DNA from: Escherichia phage vB_Eco_F22
Direction: 5' to 3' (one strand)
Length of the DNA stretch: 64,000 bases
Sequence record: OP870143.1
This document shows positions 22,037 to 34,769 of the stretch, in pieces. A program made the position numbers and the translations under genes. Position 1 is the stretch's first letter, and every line of letters starts with the position of its first letter. The notes beneath the pieces are model-generated. The model was not told the origin of the DNA. It saw nothing but the letters and a program-made list of their open reading frames with translations, and did not search any database.

Positions 22037-23347
22037 ATGTTTTCCAAACCTACCAAAGCCCCATTGAACCAGGGGCAAGAAGCGGTTGCGAAGGAGTTCT
22101 TCGACTTCCTGCTCGACCCTAATGCCACAGAGTTCGGAATCAGTGGACCTGGAGGAACTGGTAAGACATTCCTGATGTCGCACCTTATTGATGACACTAT
22201 GCCTGCATATATGGAAACCTGTTCTTTGATGGGAACCAAGCCTCTGTATAACGAAGTTGTCATGACTGCGACCACGAACAAAGCTGCTGAAGTTCTGGCT
22301 CAGGCTACTGGACGACCAACCTCTACCTATCATTCCTTCCAGGGACTGATTGTTAAGAATGACTTTAAGACTGGTGAAGCTAATGTCGTACCGTCTAAGT
22401 CATTCACTATTAAGAAGAACAAAATTATCTTCGTAGATGAAGCATCCATGATTGACCGTCAGTTACTTAAGTATGCTCGTGAAGGTACTCACCAGTGCAA
22501 ACTGGTATTCGTAGGTGATGCTTCTCAGCTTCTGCCTGTTAAAGAGAGTAAGTCTCCAGTGTACGCAGGTAATATCCCAACACACTATCTGACTGAACAG
22601 ATGCGTACCGATACACCAGAACTCAAAACATTGCACCAGCAATTGCGTGATACGGTGGAAGGTAAGACAGGCTTCCTACCTATTAAATGTATTCCAGGTA
22701 TCATTGACTGGGTGCAGGGGGAAGAGATGGAGAAACTGGTTCTCAGTCACTTCACTCAGCCCACCAATAGCCGTATTGTTGCTTACACAAATGACCAGGT
22801 TATTAATTACAATAACTACATTCGTGAAGCTAATGGATATGTGGGTGAATACTCCATCGGTGAACAGCTTGTTTCTAACTCAGCCGTTCGCTTAGGCGTG
22901 GATGACCGTCTGTCTATCGAGCAGGACGTAAAACTCATTGACCAGGATAGCAGTACTCGCATGATTAAGGTTACAGGTGACCTGGAACTGGAAGTTCGTG
23001 ATAGTACTCTTGACCTTGGCTATGGTGGTATTGTTAGTGAAGTACCGGTTCCTACCGACCCAGACTACTTCAACCGTTTGGTTAAGTGGTTAGGTAAAGA
23101 GAAGAACTGGGAACCTTATTTCCGTCTTAAAGAAACCATTCCAGACCTTCGTGCTACTCATGCATGTACTGTTCATAAATCACAAGGCTCTACTTACGAC
23201 ACAATCTTTATTGATGCAAATGACCTCTCAAGCTGTCGCCAACCTGATATGGTTGCCCGTCTGCTTTACGTCGCTGTGTCTCGTGCTCGTAAGCGTGTAG
23301 TGTTCTATGGCAATCTTGCCAGTAAGTATGGTGGTCTAACTTTCTAA
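22037..23347 (+). CDS. SF1 DNA helicase, Dda/RecD-like
   Basis: Walker A GPGGTGKTF, Walker B VDEASMI, and HKSQGSTYD motif characteristic of RecD/Dda helicases. Confidence 0.75.
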   Translation: MFSKPTKAPLNQGQEAVAKEFFDFLLDPNATEFGISGPGGTGKTFLMSHLIDDTMPAYMETCSLMGTKPLYNEVVMTATTNKAAEVLAQATGRPTSTYHSFQGLIVKNDFKTGEANVVPSKSFTIKKNKIIFVDEASMIDRQLLKYAREGTHQCKLVFVGDASQLLPVKESKSPVYAGNIPTHYLTEQMRTDTPELKTLHQQLRDTVEGKTGFLPIKCIPGIIDWVQGEEMEKLVLSHFTQPTNSRIVAYTNDQVINYNNYIREANGYVGEYSIGEQLVSNSAVRLGVDDRLSIEQDVKLIDQDSSTRMIKVTGDLELEVRDSTLDLGYGGIVSEVPVPTDPDYFNRLVKWLGKEKNWEPYFRLKETIPDLRATHACTVHKSQGSTYDTIFIDANDLSSCRQPDMVARLLYVAVSRARKRVVFYGNLASKYGGLTF

Positions 23348-23897: not shown

Positions 23898-26477
23898 ATG
23901 CGTTACATCACCTCTCAGGATACTGGCAAGTATCCTATTGCTATCCTCGGTCATCAAATCCGAAGGGAGGAGATGATTAAAACCTACCTGCTGCCTTATG
24001 ACCTAAGCATGGAAGATTTCATCTTCCTTGAACTTCATTCTGCTCCCGGTAAGAAGAAGACTCCTGCAAGGGAGATTAAAGAGTTCATTCGGCAGGAACT
24101 ACAGCAAGTACTGGATGATGCAGAGACTCAGTACATTATATGTACCGATTCTGACTACTTTAAGATACTGACTAAAGAAGCTAAAGCAGAGGCTAACCTC
24201 GGCTATGTTTGTGACTCAGTATGGGGTAAGCAGAAGGTTATCTATACACCCAGTTACAGACAGGTCTTTTATGACCCACCTGTAGTGAAAGCCAAGATTG
24301 CTCAGGGTATGGATGCATTACTTAACCACATTCGTGGACAGTATGCTGAACCAGGACAGGGAATCATTGAGTTTGAAGCCTATCCAGATACGCCTGAAAA
24401 GATTAAAGCCTGGTTAGACCAGTTGCTTGAGATGAATAAGCCTCTGGCTATAGACATCGAATCCTTCGGTTTAAAGCACTATAACGCTGGTATAGGAACG
24501 ATTACGTTCTGTTGGAGTAAGACACAAGGCATAGCCTTTAATGTGGACTACGAGCCGATTAAGGGGGCTACTGAAGCTCCTTATGGGCGTATCAACAGGA
24601 ACGATGTTGTTCGTAACCTATTACGTGAGTTCTTCATTAAGTACACACAGCGGCAGATGTATCACAACATTAGCTATGACGTGTACATACTTATCTATCA
24701 GTTATTCATGGATAATCTGATTGATACGGAGGGCTTACTGCATGGCATGGAAATCATGCTGCGTAACTGGGACTGTACTAAGTTAATCACATATCTGGCT
24801 ACTAACAGTTGTGCTGGCAATCACCTTAGTCTTAAAGACCAGGCTCAGGAGTATGCTGGTAACTATGCTCAGGATGATATTAAAGACATTCGTCTTATTC
24901 CTAATGAGCAATTGTTACGCTACAACCTCATTGATGGTTTGTGTACCTGGTACACCTATGAGAAGCACTGGGATACTCTCATTGCTGATGACCAACTAGA
25001 TGTTTACAACAACATCTTTAAGCCAGCCTGCGAAGATATTATCCAGATGCAACTTACCGGTATGCCCATGAATATGGATACCGTTAACCAAGTAGCTAAG
25101 GAGATGGAAACTGACAGGAACCAGGCTCTGAAAACTATTCGTGAGTCTAAGCTCATGAAGAATTTCACACTGATGCTTCGTCAGGAATGGGTAGACGATA
25201 AGAATGCTAAGCTTAAGAAGAAGCAGGTAACATTGGCTGACTGTGACATTGAGTTTAATCCTAACTCCGGTCCACAATTACAGAAACTGTTATTTGATTA
25301 TATTGGCTTACCGGTTCTTAGCCTTACTAAGAGCAAGCAACCTGCTACTGACGGCGACACTATTAAAGCACTGCGTACACATACGCAGAGTGAAGATGTT
25401 AAGGAACTGCTCAATGCACTTATCGACTATAAACTCGTGGATAAGATTATCACTAGTTTTATACCAGCTTTCAGGAATGCCCAACCGGGGCCAGATGGCT
25501 GGCACTACCTATTCGGCAACCTCAATCTGGGAGGCACAGTATCAGGACGTCTCTCAGCGTCTGAACCTAACCTACAGACCATCCCCAGTGGTTCCAAATA
25601 TGCCAAGAAGATTAAGAAATGCTTCGAAGCACCACCAGGCTGGATATTTTGTGGACTGGACTTTGCAAGCCTTGAAGACCGTATCTCAGCTTTAACTACG
25701 AAAGACCCTCAGAAACTTAAGGTGTATACCGATGGTTATGATGGGCATAGTCTACGTGCATATGCTTACTTCGGTGAGCAGATGCCAGACATTGTAGATA
25801 CAGTTGAGTCAATCAATTCTATTCAGACGAAGTACAAGCACTTGCGTAGTGATTCTAAAGCCCCAACCTTCTTGCTTACCTATGGTGGCACGTATATGGG
25901 CTTGATGAAAAACTGTGGCTTCTCGGAAGAGAAAGCTAAGACAACAGAGAAACGTTATCACGATCTCTATGTAGTTAGTGATATGTGGGTTCAGGCTAAG
26001 CTAGACGAAGCTGCCAAAACTGGTTATGTAACTGCTGCATTTGGTTTGAGAGTGCGTACTCCTTTACTGGCTCAGGTATTACGTGGGACATGTAAGACTC
26101 CATATGAAGCAGAAGCTGAAGGTAGAACTGCTGGTAATGCCTTGGGGCAAAGCTGGTGTCTACTGAATAACCGTGCTGGTTCAGAGTTTATGCGTAAAGT
26201 CAGAGCCAGTGAGTTCAGATTAGATATACGTCCTAGTATTCACATTCATGATGCTCAGTACTTCATGATTCGTGACAACATGGATACCTTGCAGTACACG
26301 AACAAGCATTTGGTTGAAGCCGTTAACTGGCAAGACCATCCTGATATTGCTCATCCAGAAGTTGGTTTGGGTGGGGAACTATCCTTGTTTTACCCAACGT
26401 GGGCTAACGAGATTGAGATTCCAAATCACGCTACCCCAGAAGAAGTTAATCAAATAATTCAAAAGGCATTCGCATGA
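23898..26477 (+). CDS. Family A (Pol I-type) DNA polymerase with 3'-5' exonuclease domain
   Basis: Exo motif LAIDIESFGL; polymerase motif A RLSASEPNLQTIP, motif B KAPTFLLTYGG, motif C HIHDAQ; 859 aa. Confidence 0.85.
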   Translation: MRYITSQDTGKYPIAILGHQIRREEMIKTYLLPYDLSMEDFIFLELHSAPGKKKTPAREIKEFIRQELQQVLDDAETQYIICTDSDYFKILTKEAKAEANLGYVCDSVWGKQKVIYTPSYRQVFYDPPVVKAKIAQGMDALLNHIRGQYAEPGQGIIEFEAYPDTPEKIKAWLDQLLEMNKPLAIDIESFGLKHYNAGIGTITFCWSKTQGIAFNVDYEPIKGATEAPYGRINRNDVVRNLLREFFIKYTQRQMYHNISYDVYILIYQLFMDNLIDTEGLLHGMEIMLRNWDCTKLITYLATNSCAGNHLSLKDQAQEYAGNYAQDDIKDIRLIPNEQLLRYNLIDGLCTWYTYEKHWDTLIADDQLDVYNNIFKPACEDIIQMQLTGMPMNMDTVNQVAKEMETDRNQALKTIRESKLMKNFTLMLRQEWVDDKNAKLKKKQVTLADCDIEFNPNSGPQLQKLLFDYIGLPVLSLTKSKQPATDGDTIKALRTHTQSEDVKELLNALIDYKLVDKIITSFIPAFRNAQPGPDGWHYLFGNLNLGGTVSGRLSASEPNLQTIPSGSKYAKKIKKCFEAPPGWIFCGLDFASLEDRISALTTKDPQKLKVYTDGYDGHSLRAYAYFGEQMPDIVDTVESINSIQTKYKHLRSDSKAPTFLLTYGGTYMGLMKNCGFSEEKAKTTEKRYHDLYVVSDMWVQAKLDEAAKTGYVTAAFGLRVRTPLLAQVLRGTCKTPYEAEAEGRTAGNALGQSWCLLNNRAGSEFMRKVRASEFRLDIRPSIHIHDAQYFMIRDNMDTLQYTNKHLVEAVNWQDHPDIAHPEVGLGGELSLFYPTWANEIEIPNHATPEEVNQIIQKAFA

Positions 26478-26779
26478 CTAAAAGTACTAAAGAAACCGTC
26501 GTCAAAAAATATCATTGGATGGTGGCAGCACAGGTAATCTTCCAGCTTCCTAAAGCTGAAGATGGTTCCCTGCTTACCATGAACACAATGCTGCTCACTG
26601 ACGAACCTCATGTGACTTATAAAGATTTGGCTCGTGTCAATCACTCCCTGAAGATTAGTCTGGACCAGCGTTTCGACACCTCGGTTGACCTGAAAGATAT
26701 TGTTTATCTGTCTCTTAGCAACCTGGGTCTGATGTCTGAACCAGAGTTCCAGGCAAACATGATTCCCAAGGGGGAATAA
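26474..26779 (+). CDS. Hypothetical protein (101 aa)
   Basis: ORF with ATGA overlap. Confidence 0.45.
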   Translation: MTKSTKETVVKKYHWMVAAQVIFQLPKAEDGSLLTMNTMLLTDEPHVTYKDLARVNHSLKISLDQRFDTSVDLKDIVYLSLSNLGLMSEPEFQANMIPKGE

Positions 26780-27063
26780 TGACTAAGCTCTCCGGTGGTC
26801 TTAATAACTACTATGTAGTTCCAATTAAGAATCCCCAACGGAAAGAGCAAGAGCCATATCAAGCAGAGTGTGAGGATATTATCCAAGCACTGGGCATGAC
26901 CTTCGATGAAGGTTGTGCCTTTAAAGCTCTATGGCGAAATGCTGCTGCCCGTATGGGTAATGGTAAACCAGGTAACTCTTCGGTGTACGACTCAGAGAAG
27001 ATTGTGCACTATGCCAATCGAATATTGAAAAAGGCTTATAATGAAGATAACCAACAATCATGA
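26779..27063 (+). CDS. Hypothetical protein (94 aa)
   Basis: ORF with ATGA overlap. Confidence 0.45.
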   Translation: MTKLSGGLNNYYVVPIKNPQRKEQEPYQAECEDIIQALGMTFDEGCAFKALWRNAAARMGNGKPGNSSVYDSEKIVHYANRILKKAYNEDNQQS

Positions 27064-28021
27064 TGTCTCATTGGCTCTGGCTGTATGGCTATTACATGAC
27101 GAGTATGATTACGTAGACAATCCTAAGTACCTGTCTGCTACCACATTGCTTAAACCTATTAAGCAAATCGTCATGAAGCATCGTGTAGATTTTAGTGACC
27201 AGTCCATTGATGTTATGGATTTCGTATCCACATCAATGGGTACTGGCTTACATGACTCTATAGAGAAAGCCTGGAAGCTGGGCCATAAGACTGCATTGAA
27301 GAAGCTAGGTTATCCTCAGCGAGTAATTGATGCAGTAGTCATTAACCCAACCAAAGCAGACTTTGCTGCTAATCCTGACCTTATCCCAATCTACATTGAA
27401 CAACGTGGAACCAAACAGGTTAAGGGATGGACTATTGGTGGTAAGTTCGACATCGTAACGGAAGGTCTGCTGCAAGACTTCAAGTCTACCTCAACCTATT
27501 CCTGGGTTGCTGGTTCCCGTGATGATGAACACAAGATGCAAGGCAGCTTGTATCGTTGGATTCACAACGACATCATTACTGAGGATGTAATTCGTATTAA
27601 CTACATCTTCACCGACTTCATGAAACACATGGCTAACAGCAATCCGAACTATCCTGCTAATCGCATTATGCATAAGGATATTCCATTGCTATCTGTCGAG
27701 AAGACTGAGCGTTGGGTAGAGGAGAAGATTCACTTAATTGAAAAGTACTGGGATGCACCTGAAGAGGAAATCCCTGAATGTACTGACGAGGAGTTGTGGC
27801 GAACAGAGCCACAGTTCAAATACTTCTCTGATGCTTCTAAGGTAGATGTACCTGGAGCCAGAAGTACCAAAAACTTTGACGATATGGCATCTGCCCGTAT
27901 CTTCATGGCTGAAAAAGGTGGCAAGGGTGCTATCAAGGTCGTGGAGGGACAGGTTAAAAGATGTCTTTACTGTCCTGTCGCATCTATTTGCAAACAAAGA
28001 GAGAGATATTTTCCATCATGA
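27041..28021 (+). CDS. PD-(D/E)XK nuclease, Cas4/RecB-like, with C-terminal Cys cluster
   Basis: GKFDIVTEG...QDFKS nuclease core; C-terminal CLYCPVASIC (C-x2-C-x5-C) plus an upstream Cys, consistent with an Fe-S nuclease. Confidence 0.55.
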   Translation: MKITNNHDVSLALAVWLLHDEYDYVDNPKYLSATTLLKPIKQIVMKHRVDFSDQSIDVMDFVSTSMGTGLHDSIEKAWKLGHKTALKKLGYPQRVIDAVVINPTKADFAANPDLIPIYIEQRGTKQVKGWTIGGKFDIVTEGLLQDFKSTSTYSWVAGSRDDEHKMQGSLYRWIHNDIITEDVIRINYIFTDFMKHMANSNPNYPANRIMHKDIPLLSVEKTERWVEEKIHLIEKYWDAPEEEIPECTDEELWRTEPQFKYFSDASKVDVPGARSTKNFDDMASARIFMAEKGGKGAIKVVEGQVKRCLYCPVASICKQRERYFPS

Positions 28022-30171
28022 GTATTGACCTTACCGGAGTAGTGCACCATCCAGCGATTGAAGAAATCGTAGATGTGCTCTGCAATAAAACCCAGAATAA
28101 CGACCGGGGATTCTTCCGTGTCGAAGTAGCCTACTTCTTGGCTAAAATGGCATCCTGCATGGGTGCAACCATCGTAACTAAAGACCGTGGTGACCTGCCG
28201 GTAAACATCTACGCTATGGCGTTGGCTACATCTGGTTTCGGTAAAGGTCACTCGGTAAATATCATTGAAGACGGGTTCATGACTGGCTTCCGTAAACGTT
28301 TTATGGAAGACACCATGCCCGTCATTGCAAATGACCGTTTATGGAAGATTGCTAACGAACGTGCTGCTCGTCAGGGTACGGACCAGAATGATGAGTTTGA
28401 TAAAGTCGAAGCAGAGTATAAACGTGCTGGGGCATTCCCATTCACATTCGACTCTGGTACAGCACCTGCTGTAAAACAACTTCGTCACAAACTACTTATG
28501 GCTGGTTGTGGTGCTATTAACCTACAGATTGATGAGATTGGTTCCAACCTCATTGCCAACGTTGAAGTACTTAACCTGTTCCTTGAGTTGTATGACCAGG
28601 GGAAAGTAAAACAGAAGTTAACCAAGAACACTGCTGAAAGTATTCGTGGTGAAGAACTGGATGGTAAGACTCCTGCTAACCTGCTGCTGTTCGGTACTCC
28701 GAGTAAGCTGCTGGATGGTGGGCAGACTGAAGACCAGTTCTATGACTTCCTCGATACAGGGTATGCACGTCGTTGTCTGTTTGCGATTGGACACTTAGAC
28801 AAGCGAGCACATGCAACGCTGACCCCGGAAGAAATCTACCGTAACCTGATTAAGCAGGATAACGTTCAATCTCTTGGTAAGTGGGCTAACCACTTCCATA
28901 GTCTGGCTGACCCAAACCTGTTTGGCTTTAAGATGATTGTGGAAGATGCAGTGGGTATTGCTTTAATTACTTACAAAATTGATTGTGAGAAAAAAGCAGA
29001 AGCTATGGCTGACCACGAAGAAATTCGTAAGGCTGAAATCTCTCACCGTTACTTTAAGGCTCTTAAGCTGGCAGGTGCACTGGCGTTTGTTGACCAGAGT
29101 TCATTCATTGAGATGTCTCACCTTAAACAAGCAATCCTGCTCGTAGAAGAATCCGGGGCAGCATTCCAGGGTATTCTCAATCGCGAGAAAGCCTATGTGA
29201 AGCTGGCTAAGTACATTGCCTCCGTAGGTAAGGAAGTGACACATGCTGACTTGCTGGAGTCATTACCATTCTATAAGAGTGGTAATGCAGCTCGTAATGA
29301 GATGATGACTCTTGCTACAGCATGGGGTTACAAACAGCACATCATTATTAAGAAGACCTTCAATGAAGGTATTGAGTTCTTCCGTGGTGAGACTCTGAAA
29401 GAGACTGATACCAATGAGATGATAGTGGCATATAGTGATAGCTTTGCTTATGACTATGTTGGTGAACGTGTACCGTTTGACCAATTACATGTATTAACCC
29501 AAGCTCCCGGTATGCACTGGGTGAACCATCACATGAAGAATGGACATCGTTCTGAAGAGAACGTTATTCCAGGATTTAACATGATTGTTATTGACTGTGA
29601 TGGTGGAGTACCTCTGCATACGTGCCATGAACTGATGAAGGAATATAAGTTCATGACCTATACCACTAAGCGTCACACCGACGAAGAGAACCGCTTCCGT
29701 CTGATTATTCCAATGAACTATGAGTTACACCTCGACACTGAGGAATACAAAGAGTTCATGAATAACGTTATGGCTTGGCTACCATTTGAAACGGATGAGT
29801 CTGCTAACCAACGAGCCAAGAAGTGGATGTCCTGTGAGACTGGTTCCTATCATTACAACCTTGATGCAAATCTGTTGGATGTACGTGACTTTATTCCTCG
29901 TACCAGTAAGAACGAGCAGTTCCAGAACCAGATGAAGGAAGTTCAGTCGTTAGACAATCTGGAGCGTTGGTTCGCTGGTCGTATTGCCTCCGGTAATCGT
30001 AATAATCAAATGATTAAGTACGCACTGGCATTAGTAGACAGTGGTTGGGACTTTGCTCAAGTACAGCAAGCCGTCTACTCATTCAATAAGAAACTGGCTA
30101 ATCCATTACCAGATGATGAATTGAATTCAACCGTAATGGTCACCGTGGCTAAACGCTTCGCTGGCAAGTAA
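28018..30171 (+). CDS. DNA primase / primase-polymerase-type replication protein with PriCT-like C-terminus
   Basis: 717 aa from the ATGA-overlap start (track ORF begins 27961); VIDCDGG and a C-terminal PriCT-like segment; replication-module position. Confidence 0.5.
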   Translation: MSIDLTGVVHHPAIEEIVDVLCNKTQNNDRGFFRVEVAYFLAKMASCMGATIVTKDRGDLPVNIYAMALATSGFGKGHSVNIIEDGFMTGFRKRFMEDTMPVIANDRLWKIANERAARQGTDQNDEFDKVEAEYKRAGAFPFTFDSGTAPAVKQLRHKLLMAGCGAINLQIDEIGSNLIANVEVLNLFLELYDQGKVKQKLTKNTAESIRGEELDGKTPANLLLFGTPSKLLDGGQTEDQFYDFLDTGYARRCLFAIGHLDKRAHATLTPEEIYRNLIKQDNVQSLGKWANHFHSLADPNLFGFKMIVEDAVGIALITYKIDCEKKAEAMADHEEIRKAEISHRYFKALKLAGALAFVDQSSFIEMSHLKQAILLVEESGAAFQGILNREKAYVKLAKYIASVGKEVTHADLLESLPFYKSGNAARNEMMTLATAWGYKQHIIIKKTFNEGIEFFRGETLKETDTNEMIVAYSDSFAYDYVGERVPFDQLHVLTQAPGMHWVNHHMKNGHRSEENVIPGFNMIVIDCDGGVPLHTCHELMKEYKFMTYTTKRHTDEENRFRLIIPMNYELHLDTEEYKEFMNNVMAWLPFETDESANQRAKKWMSCETGSYHYNLDANLLDVRDFIPRTSKNEQFQNQMKEVQSLDNLERWFAGRIASGNRNNQMIKYALALVDSGWDFAQVQQAVYSFNKKLANPLPDDELNSTVMVTVAKRFAGK

Positions 30172-30227: not shown

Positions 30228-30980
30228 ATGTCCGAAGAAATCTCCAACGATATGAACACTCAGCTAATCCTGATTGCAGGATTCTCAGCAAGTGGTAAAT
30301 CAGCATCGCTGCGTAATATCCGGAACCAGGAACGCTGGCTGTATCTGAATACAGAAGCAGGCAAGCGTCTACCTTTTCGTAATAAATTCAACACCTACAA
30401 CATTGAAGACCCATATCAGATTTGGGAAGCATTTGATGTTGCATCTCCAGGTGGTGAAATGGCAGATGATGTTGATGGTATCATCATCGACTCTGCTACC
30501 TTCATGATGGACATGTTGGAATCCCAGTATGTATTGCCATCTGCTAATACTCAGAAAGCCTGGGGAGACTTTGCACAGTTCTTTAAAATACTGCTGCAAC
30601 AGAAAGTCGTTAAGTTTGGTAAGCCAGTAATTATTACTGCACATGCCAAAGATGAACTCGACGAAGCTGCTGGTGTGATGAAAACATTCATCCCAGTTAA
30701 AGGCTCCCTGAAGAACAATGGCCTTGAGGCTTACTTCTCTACAGTGGTTTACGCAGAACGTGTAGACATTAAGGAACTGGAGAAGTACGGCAACAAGATG
30801 CTTGATATTACGGAAGAAGAACGTGACTTAGGCTATAAGCACGTATTCCAGACACGTCCAACCAAGAAGTCTGTTGGTAAACGACTTCGCTCACCGATGG
30901 GTATGTTTGATAAGTCGCAGACTTACATTGATAATGATGCCCAAAAACTCTTAGACCATCTGGCTGAATACTACGCTTAA
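30228..30980 (+). CDS. P-loop ATPase (RecA-fold, Sak4-like candidate)
   Basis: Walker A GFSASGKS, Walker B IIIDSATF; 250 aa. Confidence 0.5.
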   Translation: MSEEISNDMNTQLILIAGFSASGKSASLRNIRNQERWLYLNTEAGKRLPFRNKFNTYNIEDPYQIWEAFDVASPGGEMADDVDGIIIDSATFMMDMLESQYVLPSANTQKAWGDFAQFFKILLQQKVVKFGKPVIITAHAKDELDEAAGVMKTFIPVKGSLKNNGLEAYFSTVVYAERVDIKELEKYGNKMLDITEEERDLGYKHVFQTRPTKKSVGKRLRSPMGMFDKSQTYIDNDAQKLLDHLAEYYA

Positions 30981-31020: not shown

Positions 31021-31824
31021 ATGTCACTGTTCGGTAACTTGAAAGAAAAAACCAAAAACGTTGAAGCTGCAAAAGACACTCTTGGTGGTGGTGGCTTCGG
31101 TGCTAAAGAATCTGATATCTACACTGGTACTGTAAAAGTAGCTTACGTAGGTAAAGCTGATTCTGGTGCAGACTGGATGCAGTTAATCATCGAAAACCTG
31201 AAAGGTTCTGACGGCAATGATGCTGGTGAGTTCCGTGCTCAGGTGTACTTTACTTCCGGTAATGCTAAAGGCAATAAGCCGACTTACGAGAAGAATGGTA
31301 AAGAATACTTCCTGCCTGGCTACACTGTCATTAATGACATGATGCTGATGGCTACTGGTTGTGAACTGCCAGATGCAGACTTCGAAGAGAAGATTGTTAA
31401 AGTCTATGACTTCGACCTGAAAGCTGAAACCAATAAGTCTGTCATGGTTCCAGTTGACCTGGTTGGGCAGACTGTTACCTTCGCTCTGGAAAAGGTTCTG
31501 GAAGCTAAGCAGGTTAAAGGTGACAACGGTTACGTTGACTCCGGAGAAACTCGTGAAGTAAACGAGATTCAGAAAGTATTTCACCCGGAATTGCTGGTCA
31601 CAGTCGTCGAGGCTCAGGAAGCAGAGAAGGCTGAGAAAGAACTGACCCCAGAACTGGCTGTATTCTATGCAGCATGGCTGGAAAAGAACAAAGGTAAAAC
31701 CCGTGATAAGACCAAGGGTTCTGCTGGTGGTAATGGTAAAGGTGGCCTGCCTCCTAAACCAGGTGCAGGTGCTGGCACAGGTACTACTCCTGCTGGTGGT
31801 AAATCTCTGTTCGGTAAGCGTTAA
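31021..31824 (+). CDS. Single-stranded DNA-binding protein candidate (N4 gp45-like) with Gly-rich C-terminal tail
   Basis: 267 aa; position between replication ATPase and resolvase as in N4; no OB-fold motif verified. Confidence 0.4.
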   Translation: MSLFGNLKEKTKNVEAAKDTLGGGGFGAKESDIYTGTVKVAYVGKADSGADWMQLIIENLKGSDGNDAGEFRAQVYFTSGNAKGNKPTYEKNGKEYFLPGYTVINDMMLMATGCELPDADFEEKIVKVYDFDLKAETNKSVMVPVDLVGQTVTFALEKVLEAKQVKGDNGYVDSGETREVNEIQKVFHPELLVTVVEAQEAEKAEKELTPELAVFYAAWLEKNKGKTRDKTKGSAGGNGKGGLPPKPGAGAGTGTTPAGGKSLFGKR

Positions 31825-32378
31825 TGAAAATCCCAATTGTCGGTGCAGACATTAGCCTCCGCAATTGGGGATTAGCTCGTGGGATGCTGGACATTGAGTC
31901 CGGCGTCTTCGAGCAGGTCGAACTTAAACTGGTTCAAACTGAAGTTGACCACAACAAACAAGTTCGAACCAACTCCAAAGATATACAAGCTGCCCATGAT
32001 TTGTTTCTTGGTTGTGAAGAATGGTTACGGTCTGCTAAAGCAGTATTCGTAGAAGTGCCAGTAGGCTCTCAGTCTGCTAATGGTATGAAGTCCTATGGTG
32101 TATGCGTAGGATTAATCGGTGCATTCCGTGCATTGGGTTGCCCAATCTTTGAAGTATCCCCAATTGAAAACAAACTTGCACTGGTCGGTGATAAAACTGC
32201 ATCCAAAGACACGATGATCCGTGCTGCTCATGCCATCTATCCTGAAGCCAACTGGCTCACAGATAAGAAAGGTAAACTTCTGAATAAGAATGAGCACTTA
32301 GCCGATGCAATCGGTGCAATCCACGCTGGGGTAAATCTTCCAGCTTTCCAAAATCTCATTAAATTAATAAAGGCATAA
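31824..32378 (+). CDS. RuvC-like Holliday junction resolvase
   Basis: N-terminal VGADISLRNWG, FVEVPVGSQ and HLADAIGAIHAG, matching the RuvC acidic catalytic residue spacing; 184 aa. Confidence 0.55.
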   Translation: MKIPIVGADISLRNWGLARGMLDIESGVFEQVELKLVQTEVDHNKQVRTNSKDIQAAHDLFLGCEEWLRSAKAVFVEVPVGSQSANGMKSYGVCVGLIGAFRALGCPIFEVSPIENKLALVGDKTASKDTMIRAAHAIYPEANWLTDKKGKLLNKNEHLADAIGAIHAGVNLPAFQNLIKLIKA

Positions 32379-32379
32379 T

Positions 32380-32829
32380 ATGCAAATCGTTCTGAACCAG
32401 TCTGAAGTAGAAGCTGCTATTGAAGCTTATGTAAACGAACAAGTTAATCTTGCCGGGGACATTAATATCCTGGTGAATGCAGATGGTACTGCCACCATTG
32501 GAATCAATGAAGAGGTCGGTCATAGTGATGACACTCCCCCCGTGGTAGAGAAGAAGACTCGCCGTCCTCGTAAGAATCCACAGGAAGCCAAACACCGTCC
32601 AGTAGAACCGGAACCGGCTGTTGAGGATGAAGCTGAAGAAGAGGTAAAGGAAGAAGAAACCCAGACCTCTACTGGTGGTGTGAACGAGAGTTCTACGCCG
32701 GAAGCTGAAGAAGTAGTAGCTGAACCAGAAGCACAAGAAGAAGCTGTGCAGGAGGAAGTTAAGGCAGAAGAACCAGCAGAGAAACCTGCTGCGAAGCCTT
32801 CACTGTTCGCTGGCCTGAAACGTAGTTAA
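32380..32829 (+). CDS. Hypothetical protein with highly acidic Glu/Ala/Pro-rich C-terminal half
   Basis: 149 aa; C-terminal 70 residues are mostly E/A/P/V. Confidence 0.45.
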   Translation: MQIVLNQSEVEAAIEAYVNEQVNLAGDINILVNADGTATIGINEEVGHSDDTPPVVEKKTRRPRKNPQEAKHRPVEPEPAVEDEAEEEVKEEETQTSTGGVNESSTPEAEEVVAEPEAQEEAVQEEVKAEEPAEKPAAKPSLFAGLKRS

Positions 32830-34461: not shown

Positions 34462-34535
34462 GTCCACTTAGCTTAGACTGGGAAAGCAACCGACTAATAA
34501 TCGGAAGGTCACTGGTTCAAATCCAGTAGTGGACA
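34462..34535 (+). tRNA. tRNA gene (74 nt); anticodon loop CTAATAA, anticodon tentatively AAT; CCA not encoded
   Basis: Manual cloverleaf: acceptor GTCCACT/AGTGGAC (7 bp), D-stem GCTT/AAGC with GG in loop, 4-bp anticodon stem CCGA/TCGG, T-arm ACTGG-TTCAAAT-CCAGT. Confidence 0.5.
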
Positions 34536-34769
34536 CCTATTCAGCAGTAACATAGTCCTGATTGCATAGCACTCTAAAGACAACACTGGTAAGACAGTCC
34601 AGTGGCTGCTAATGTATTGTTATTCCCCTCGACGGGAATTTCGCTAGTGAAGGTAACACTTAAAAATCCAAAGCTACGTCTTACTACTATCGGGCTATCA
34701 ACCCACGGTCGCTTAACCCTATAGCGGTAGTAGTTTGACGGCCTGCCTCGTTGACTGCGTTAAAGTCAC

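Follow-up and report, generated by a model that had tools for sequence, protein, structure and literature searches.

An N4 gp42-type, Cas4-fold exonuclease with four invariant cysteines in the replication module of Escherichia phage vB_Eco_F22

The gp42-type gene and its phage family

The window, a 64,000-nucleotide stretch of Escherichia phage vB_Eco_F22 (OP870143.1), comes from an N4-like podophage of the G7C/Gamaleyavirus type, and the 7 kb around the gene described here share 98.9% DNA identity with Escherichia phage E20 and 94–96% with G7C, Bas96 and other relatives. In this segment, a 326-codon gene for a RecB/Cas4-fold PD-(D/E)XK nuclease (hereafter gp42) is flanked by the genes for a family-A DNA polymerase and a primase (Table 1), inside the replication module where the sequence-only reading of the window had placed it. 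Because N4 gp42 and all homologues open with MKITN, as this protein does, the start at 27041 is secure; a 94-aa ORF on the 5′ side overlaps it by 23 nt. At the 3′ end, the stop codon and the primase ATG at 28018 overlap as ATGA, suggesting translational coupling between the two genes. This primase start is favoured by homologue annotations and by the PHROG 2135 alignment over the ATG at 27961, inside the exonuclease gene, at which the mechanical ORF list begins the primase. ORFs of up to 87 aa on the minus strand or in other frames within the gene were discarded as spurious, the plus frame being conserved over its full length.

Table 1 Features of the vB_Eco_F22 window and of related loci (positions refer to the window unless another locus is named)
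Feature	Position	Strand	Basis or remark
Dda-like SF1 helicase	22037–23347	+	PHROG 325, E 7e-135; Pfam AAA_30, UvrD_C_2
Family-A DNA polymerase (N4 gp39-like)	23898–26477	+	Annotated in relatives; two small ORFs separate it from the exonuclease gene
94-aa ORF	26779–27063	+	Overlaps the exonuclease start
N4 gp42-type exonuclease, 326 aa	27041–28021	+	RecB/Cas4-fold PD-(D/E)XK nuclease
N-terminal motif S32-A-T-T-L-L-K-P39-I-K41	27134–27163	+	Counterpart of Cas4/AddB T-D-L-x-x-C-P-R
Nuclease motif I, G67...H71...E75	27239–27265	+	G67 and H71 invariant; E75 at least 90% conserved
Nuclease motif II, G133-G-K-F-D137-I-V	27437–27457	+	Metal-binding aspartate; D137 in 151/151 sequences
Nuclease motif III, L143-L-Q-D146-F-K148-S-T	27467–27490	+	(D/E)xK; D146 and K148 invariant
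Nuclease motif IV, Q167-G-S-L-Y171	27539–27553	+	RecB-family QxxxY; Q167 and Y171 invariant
Motif P245-E-C247-T-D-E-E-L-W253	27773–27799	+	Relocated fourth cysteine; C247 codon tgt, 27779–27781
Insert of ~55 residues, about residues 254–306	27800–27958	+	Strand-strand-helix-strand in the predicted model (residues 258–301)
Trio C308-L-Y-C311-P-V-A-S-I-C317	27962–27991	+	C-x2-C-x5-C, invariant; codons C308 27962–27964, C311 27971–27973, C317 27989–27991
DNA primase (N4 gp43-like)	28018–30171	+	PHROG 2135, E 0, from residue 3; Pfam PriCT_1
Sak4-like ssDNA annealing ATPase (N4 gp44-like)	30228–30980	+	PHROG 124, E 8e-50; Pfam AAA_24
N4-type single-stranded DNA binding protein (gp45-like)	31021–31824	+	PHROG 743, E 5e-89
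RuvC-like Holliday junction resolvase (gp46-like)	31824–32378	+	PHROG 159, E 3.5e-42
149-aa ORF	32380–32829	+	Directly 3′ of the RuvC-like gene
tRNA-Ile gene, anticodon AAT	34462–34537	+	ARAGORN
gp42-like nucleases with the four-cysteine layout near RecT, ERF, Sak/Rad52-like or RusA genes	L002 2732–4909; L008 4461–8265; L010 4590–6908; L012 4506–6971		Loci of distant relatives
Metagenomic contig regions of the polyvalent-protein observation	L012 10331–10909; L013 6170–6748	L013 -	

The product matched PHROG 2139 ('exonuclease') over its full length (E 6.9e-153, residues 1–325 against profile positions 2–324 of 330), with a weaker match to PHROG 1706 ('CRISPR/Cas system associated', E 4e-12), and is 71% identical over 325 aa to coliphage N4 gp42, which carries the RefSeq name 'exonuclease'. 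[quoted passage not shown] Full-length identity, gene position, the four cysteines and the catalytic residues are all shared with N4 gp42, with no difference of substance, and the gene is its orthologue, a previously annotated core replication/recombination exonuclease of N4-like phages that a roseophage study lists as 'exonuclease, N4 gp42-like' among the conserved genes (PMC11934525). Full-length homologues were found by tblastn in 471 phage records, mostly of N4-like phages from many hosts, including Escherichia, Pseudomonas, Vibrio, Achromobacter, Erwinia, the Roseobacter group and others, and the family profile retrieved 3957 matches at E ≤ 1e-3, 457 of them at E ≤ 1e-30, from 1.84 billion cluster representatives. 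A distant homologue, 24% identical, is encoded by Leptospira phage LE4. The corresponding protein of phage ST4, annotated as 'nuclease superfamily protein', is 100% identical, and with an identical protein already deposited in GenBank the assignment of this one gene adds little in practice.

The 94-aa ORF product matched parts only of several longer PHROG families, namely the C terminus of phrog_4521, the C terminus of phrog_7063 (annotated '3'-phosphatase, 5'-polynucleotide kinase') and the N terminus of phrog_37456, as if it were a small domain with varying fusion partners elsewhere among phages. Its positional counterpart in N4, gp41, is about twice as long.

Nuclease motifs and fold

In an alignment of the query with 140 representatives of at most 50% mutual identity, the invariant columns were G67, H71, E120, G134, D137, D146, K148, Q167, Y171, P205, C247, C308, C311 and C317, and no others. 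Invariance across clusters at this level of identity argues that the motifs did not arise by chance, and the same residues, the four cysteines included, are also kept across 120 relatives in the LE4-like alignment. RecB-like PD-(D/E)XK motifs I to IV are all present and in the register of Cas4, with hhalign pairing G67/H71/E75 with G58/H62/E66, D137 with D99, D146/K148 with E113/K115, and Q167/Y171 with Q131/Y135; the D99A mutant of the SSO0001 Cas4 is inactive (PMC3466216). The nuclease core picked out in the sequence-only reading is thus found in the translated ORF, as F136-D137-I138-V139 and Q145-D146-F147-K148.

PDDEXK_1 (PF12705) was the sole Pfam match of the protein, scoring 17.6 bits against a gathering cut-off of 22 and so falling below threshold, and NCBIfam gave no match for it. 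PF12705 matched 51 of the 141 family sequences at E ≤ 0.01 (best 3.7e-7), precomputed PF12705 matches exist on many LE4-like relatives, and, judged by sequence, the vB_Eco_F22 protein is a divergent PF12705 member, not a non-member.

An AlphaFold2 model built from 16 close homologues (pLDDT 77.6, below 50 in the active-site loop, with low TM-scores) was replaced by one from the 141-sequence alignment, which reached a pLDDT of 97.4 and a pTM of 0.91 and has a fold of the RecB/Cas4/lambda-Exo type. Its closest structural relatives are Cas4 SSO0001 (4ic1, Foldseek E 5e-7), Cas4-Cas1, Exo5, AdnAB, Dna2 and AddB, with MGME1 also a top neighbour. Aligned by hhalign to a Cas4 profile that we built from retrieved and aligned true SSO0001-family sequences, the gp42 family profile matched over residues 17–174 with 92.8% probability (E 4e-7) and every motif in register, and no non-nuclease family was assigned. 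Searches of all PDB chains with the single protein and two family profiles returned nothing meaningful (carboxylesterase and antitrypsin, E ≥ 0.1), the LE4-like profile alone reaching 4ic1 at E 0.02, so that homology to Cas4 rests on the profile–profile and fold comparisons.

Cas4 SSO0001, a CRISPR-associated [4Fe-4S] 5′–3′ ssDNA exonuclease of about 200 aa, is about 120 residues shorter than gp42, which has inserts at about residues 76–115 and 254–306. Unlike the nuclease domains of AddB, AdnB, Dna2 and Exo5, gp42 stands alone, with no fused helicase. In fold and chemistry the protein resembles Cas4, but it lies outside Cas4 proper and belongs with the pfam12705-type Cas4-like proteins.

A relocated cysteine and the probable metal centre

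The protein has only four cysteines, C247, C308, C311 and C317, which correspond to the C-terminal C-x2-C-x5-C trio and the single upstream cysteine of the sequence-only reading and are invariant in both the N4-like and the LE4-like alignments. The C-x2-C-x5-C pattern is shared by 263 of 264 N4-like sequences and all 38 trio-bearing Cas4 sequences, the Cas4 consensus at this position being 'WECxYCxFSxIC'. C247 is present in 150 of 151 N4-like sequences (the last has a gap) and in 121/121 of the LE4-like alignment, and the surrounding motif, P.C[TSD]..[ED].W, is found in 329 of 390 family sequences. In canonical iron-staple nucleases, one N-terminal and three C-terminal cysteines hold a cluster that bridges the nuclease core (PMC3466216). 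Whereas Cas4, AddB, AdnB, Dna2 and Exo5 tie an N-terminal cysteine to the C-terminal trio in this way, all four cysteines of gp42 lie C-terminal to the core. The likeness to a Cas4/AddB-type layout that had been drawn from sequence thus holds for the trio and fails for the canonical N-terminal cysteine. In the hhalign alignment, 'TTLLKPIK' of gp42 faces 'TDLVRCPR' of Cas4 with Pro39 in the column of Cys32, and this register recurred when the LE4-like profile was independently searched against 4ic1 with hmmsearch. A cysteine anywhere in residues 1–60 is found in 15 of 267 N4-like sequences, none of them conserved, against 37 of 39 Cas4 sequences, and the fourth cysteine stands a median of 58 residues ahead of the trio in the gp42 family against 155 in Cas4. 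By elimination, C247 would be the fourth cluster ligand.

Given that the nearest structural relatives are Fe-S proteins and that the trio fits the Cas4 consensus, the four cysteines most likely bind a [4Fe-4S] or [2Fe-2S] cluster, by analogy with Cas4, AddB, Exo5 and Dna2. A structural zinc in a Cys4 site, which would leave the nuclease and its role unchanged, has a precedent in the DUF3799 nuclease 3L0A, crystallised with Zn (PMC3466216), but appears rather unlikely here: Cas4 SSO0001, Cas4-Cas1, Exo5, AdnAB, Dna2 and AddB are all Fe-S proteins, overexpression is known to yield Fe-S proteins with artefactual zinc (PMC3466216), and the agreement of the trio with Cas4 extends to the Tyr after its first Cys. 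The literature searched contained no description of Fe-S in N4-like exonucleases, only generic table entries of the form 'exonuclease, N4 gp42-like'.

The Streptomyces phage Daubenski gp87, a pfam12705 'Cas4 family exonuclease', resembles gp42 in being a stand-alone phage nuclease with a C-x2-C-x5-C trio and recombination neighbours (UvsX-like, resolvase and RuvC), but it keeps the canonical N-terminal cysteine, in 'C-P-R-Y-W-Y-L', that the gp42 family is without, which argues that the relocated-cysteine layout is specific to the gp42 lineage. We speculate, with the balance of our judgement close to even, that the N4-like and LE4-like gp42-type nucleases form a distinct iron-staple branch, in which the first ligand has moved from the N-terminal helix, where Pro39 now stands, to a loop after the core (C247) and the metal centre closes off the inserted subdomain (254–306) rather than stapling the ends of the domain together. 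Such a subdomain may serve as a contact surface for DNA or for a partner, for example the annealase or SSB. The relocated cysteine and the insert are a modest structural variant, of which we found no description in the literature searched; a very large family with four invariant cysteines in a non-textbook order offers a natural test of a purely structural role for the cluster.

Annealase linkage and the proposed role in recombination

Two genes downstream of the exonuclease gene lies that of the Sak4-like ATPase, its presumed partner. Proteins of the Sak4 type anneal ssDNA and are stimulated in this by a cognate SSB related to N4 gp45 (PMC5928155), and it has been proposed that an exonuclease paired with Sak4 makes up a phage recombination system (PMC3483164). 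A comparable linkage recurs among distant relatives in phage genomes that are not N4-like, with the four-cysteine layout retained: in LE4, one small gene separates the nuclease gp62 from a RecT-like annealase; in two metagenomic lineages, an ERF annealase lies a few genes downstream of the nuclease and RusA upstream; and in another lineage the gp42-like nuclease is linked to a Sak/Rad52-like annealase. Two-component recombination modules of phages are recognised by just this pattern, an exonuclease that stays in place while the family of its annealase changes, and the annealase linkage of these distant relatives is the strongest contextual evidence on function. The gene belongs with those of the Sak4-like annealase, SSB and resolvase as a phage recombination toolkit. 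Compared with lambda Exo and RecE, the cysteine-cluster-free exonucleases of the two-component systems with Red-beta and RecT, gp42 has a RecA-like Sak4 for its annealase, whose gene is separated from that of gp42 by the primase gene.

RecE and lambda Exo are 5′→3′ exonucleases, and Cas4 SSO0001, AddB and Exo5 have been described as such (PMC3466216). By analogy with these relatives, end resection in the 5′→3′ direction is the most likely activity of gp42. Taking these observations together, we consider it probable that the vB_Eco_F22 protein is an N4 gp42-type RecB/Cas4-fold exonuclease with a four-cysteine metal centre that resects 5′ ends for recombination-dependent replication. H71/E75, D137, D146-x-K148 and Q167-x3-Y171 would cut DNA with a divalent metal, while C247, C308, C311 and C317 would hold a structural metal centre. 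By degrading the 5′ strand at DNA ends, gp42 would expose 3′ single strands to be coated by SSB and paired by the Sak4-like annealase, and the RuvC-like resolvase would cut the junctions arising from annealing. Such a pathway, which we infer for gp42 from its relatives and neighbours, could serve recombination-dependent replication and the formation of concatemers via terminal repeats.

A 5′→3′ exonuclease encoded by N4 was reportedly purified in 1986, and gp42, with a calculated mass of about 38 kDa, is the sole CDS named exonuclease in the N4 record. It is the obvious candidate gene for the purified enzyme, with which we infer it to be identical; the literature searched did not state the link.

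N4-type DNA polymerases have a 3′–5′ exonuclease domain only and no 5′–3′ domain (PMC2784036), which would leave room for gp42 to act chiefly in maturing the lagging strand, where, like Dna2 or Exo5, it would take off RNA primers or 5′ flaps. The position of the gene between polymerase and primase, its apparent translational coupling to the latter, and the 5′ flap and end processors Exo5, MGME1 and Dna2 among the top structural neighbours are consistent with this role. We nevertheless judge it unlikely to be the main one, as the relatives in unrelated phages accompany RecT, ERF, Sak and RusA, not polymerases. In addition, N4 replication requires the 5′–3′ exonuclease of host Pol I and host ligase, which would cover primer removal. 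Resection and primer or flap removal are not mutually exclusive.

The sequence-only reading had assigned phage Cas4-like nucleases both to recombination and to interference with CRISPR adaptation; the annealase linkage supports the first part, as a probable role, and the second is rejected here for want of either a Cas4 profile match or a cas context. The underlying observation is confirmed and its interpretation supported in substance. A rival reading, in which gp42 would imitate Cas4 mainly to subvert CRISPR adaptation in the host, for instance by feeding host-derived spacers to Cas1-Cas2, draws on the Cas4-like fold and on nothing else at this locus, and on a pfam12705-group Cas4-like protein from a Campylobacter phage that is reported to be linked to host-derived spacer acquisition (PMC5704561; PMC4283603). 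It is very improbable: Cas_Cas4 (PF01930), present on true SSO0001 relatives, matched neither the vB_Eco_F22 protein nor any of the 141 family sequences, PADLOC gave no match, inspection of related phage regions showed no annotated cas genes, the gene keeps its place in the replication module of lytic N4-like phages whatever the host, the relatives of gp42 pair with annealases and resolvases rather than cas genes, and pfam12705-type Cas4-like proteins are not CRISPR-associated (PMC5704561). The resemblance to Cas4 is thereby settled as one of fold, not of CRISPR function.

Several further features were noted around the module. The Sak4-like gene is uninterrupted here, whereas in Bas96 an endonuclease ORF embedded in it splits its CDS into two joined pieces, and the G7C, SP5M and PhAPEC relatives have HNH homing endonucleases inside this 7-kb replication stretch; with no such insertions, the vB_Eco_F22 window has a homing-element-free version. 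The 149-aa ORF directly 3′ of the RuvC-like gene had a strong match to phrog_7641, of unknown function, and a weak one (E 8e-7) to a RusA-like resolvase PHROG, and its product may be a second junction-processing protein. The tRNA-Ile gene is the single tRNA gene identified by ARAGORN, and in Bas96 a tRNA-Val is annotated in the equivalent stretch of small ORFs, which runs from the replication module to the virion RNA polymerase gene. Metagenomic phage contigs with a gp42-like nuclease encode, a few kb away, a 3025-aa polyvalent protein with the Pfam domains ART-PolyVal and LPD38.
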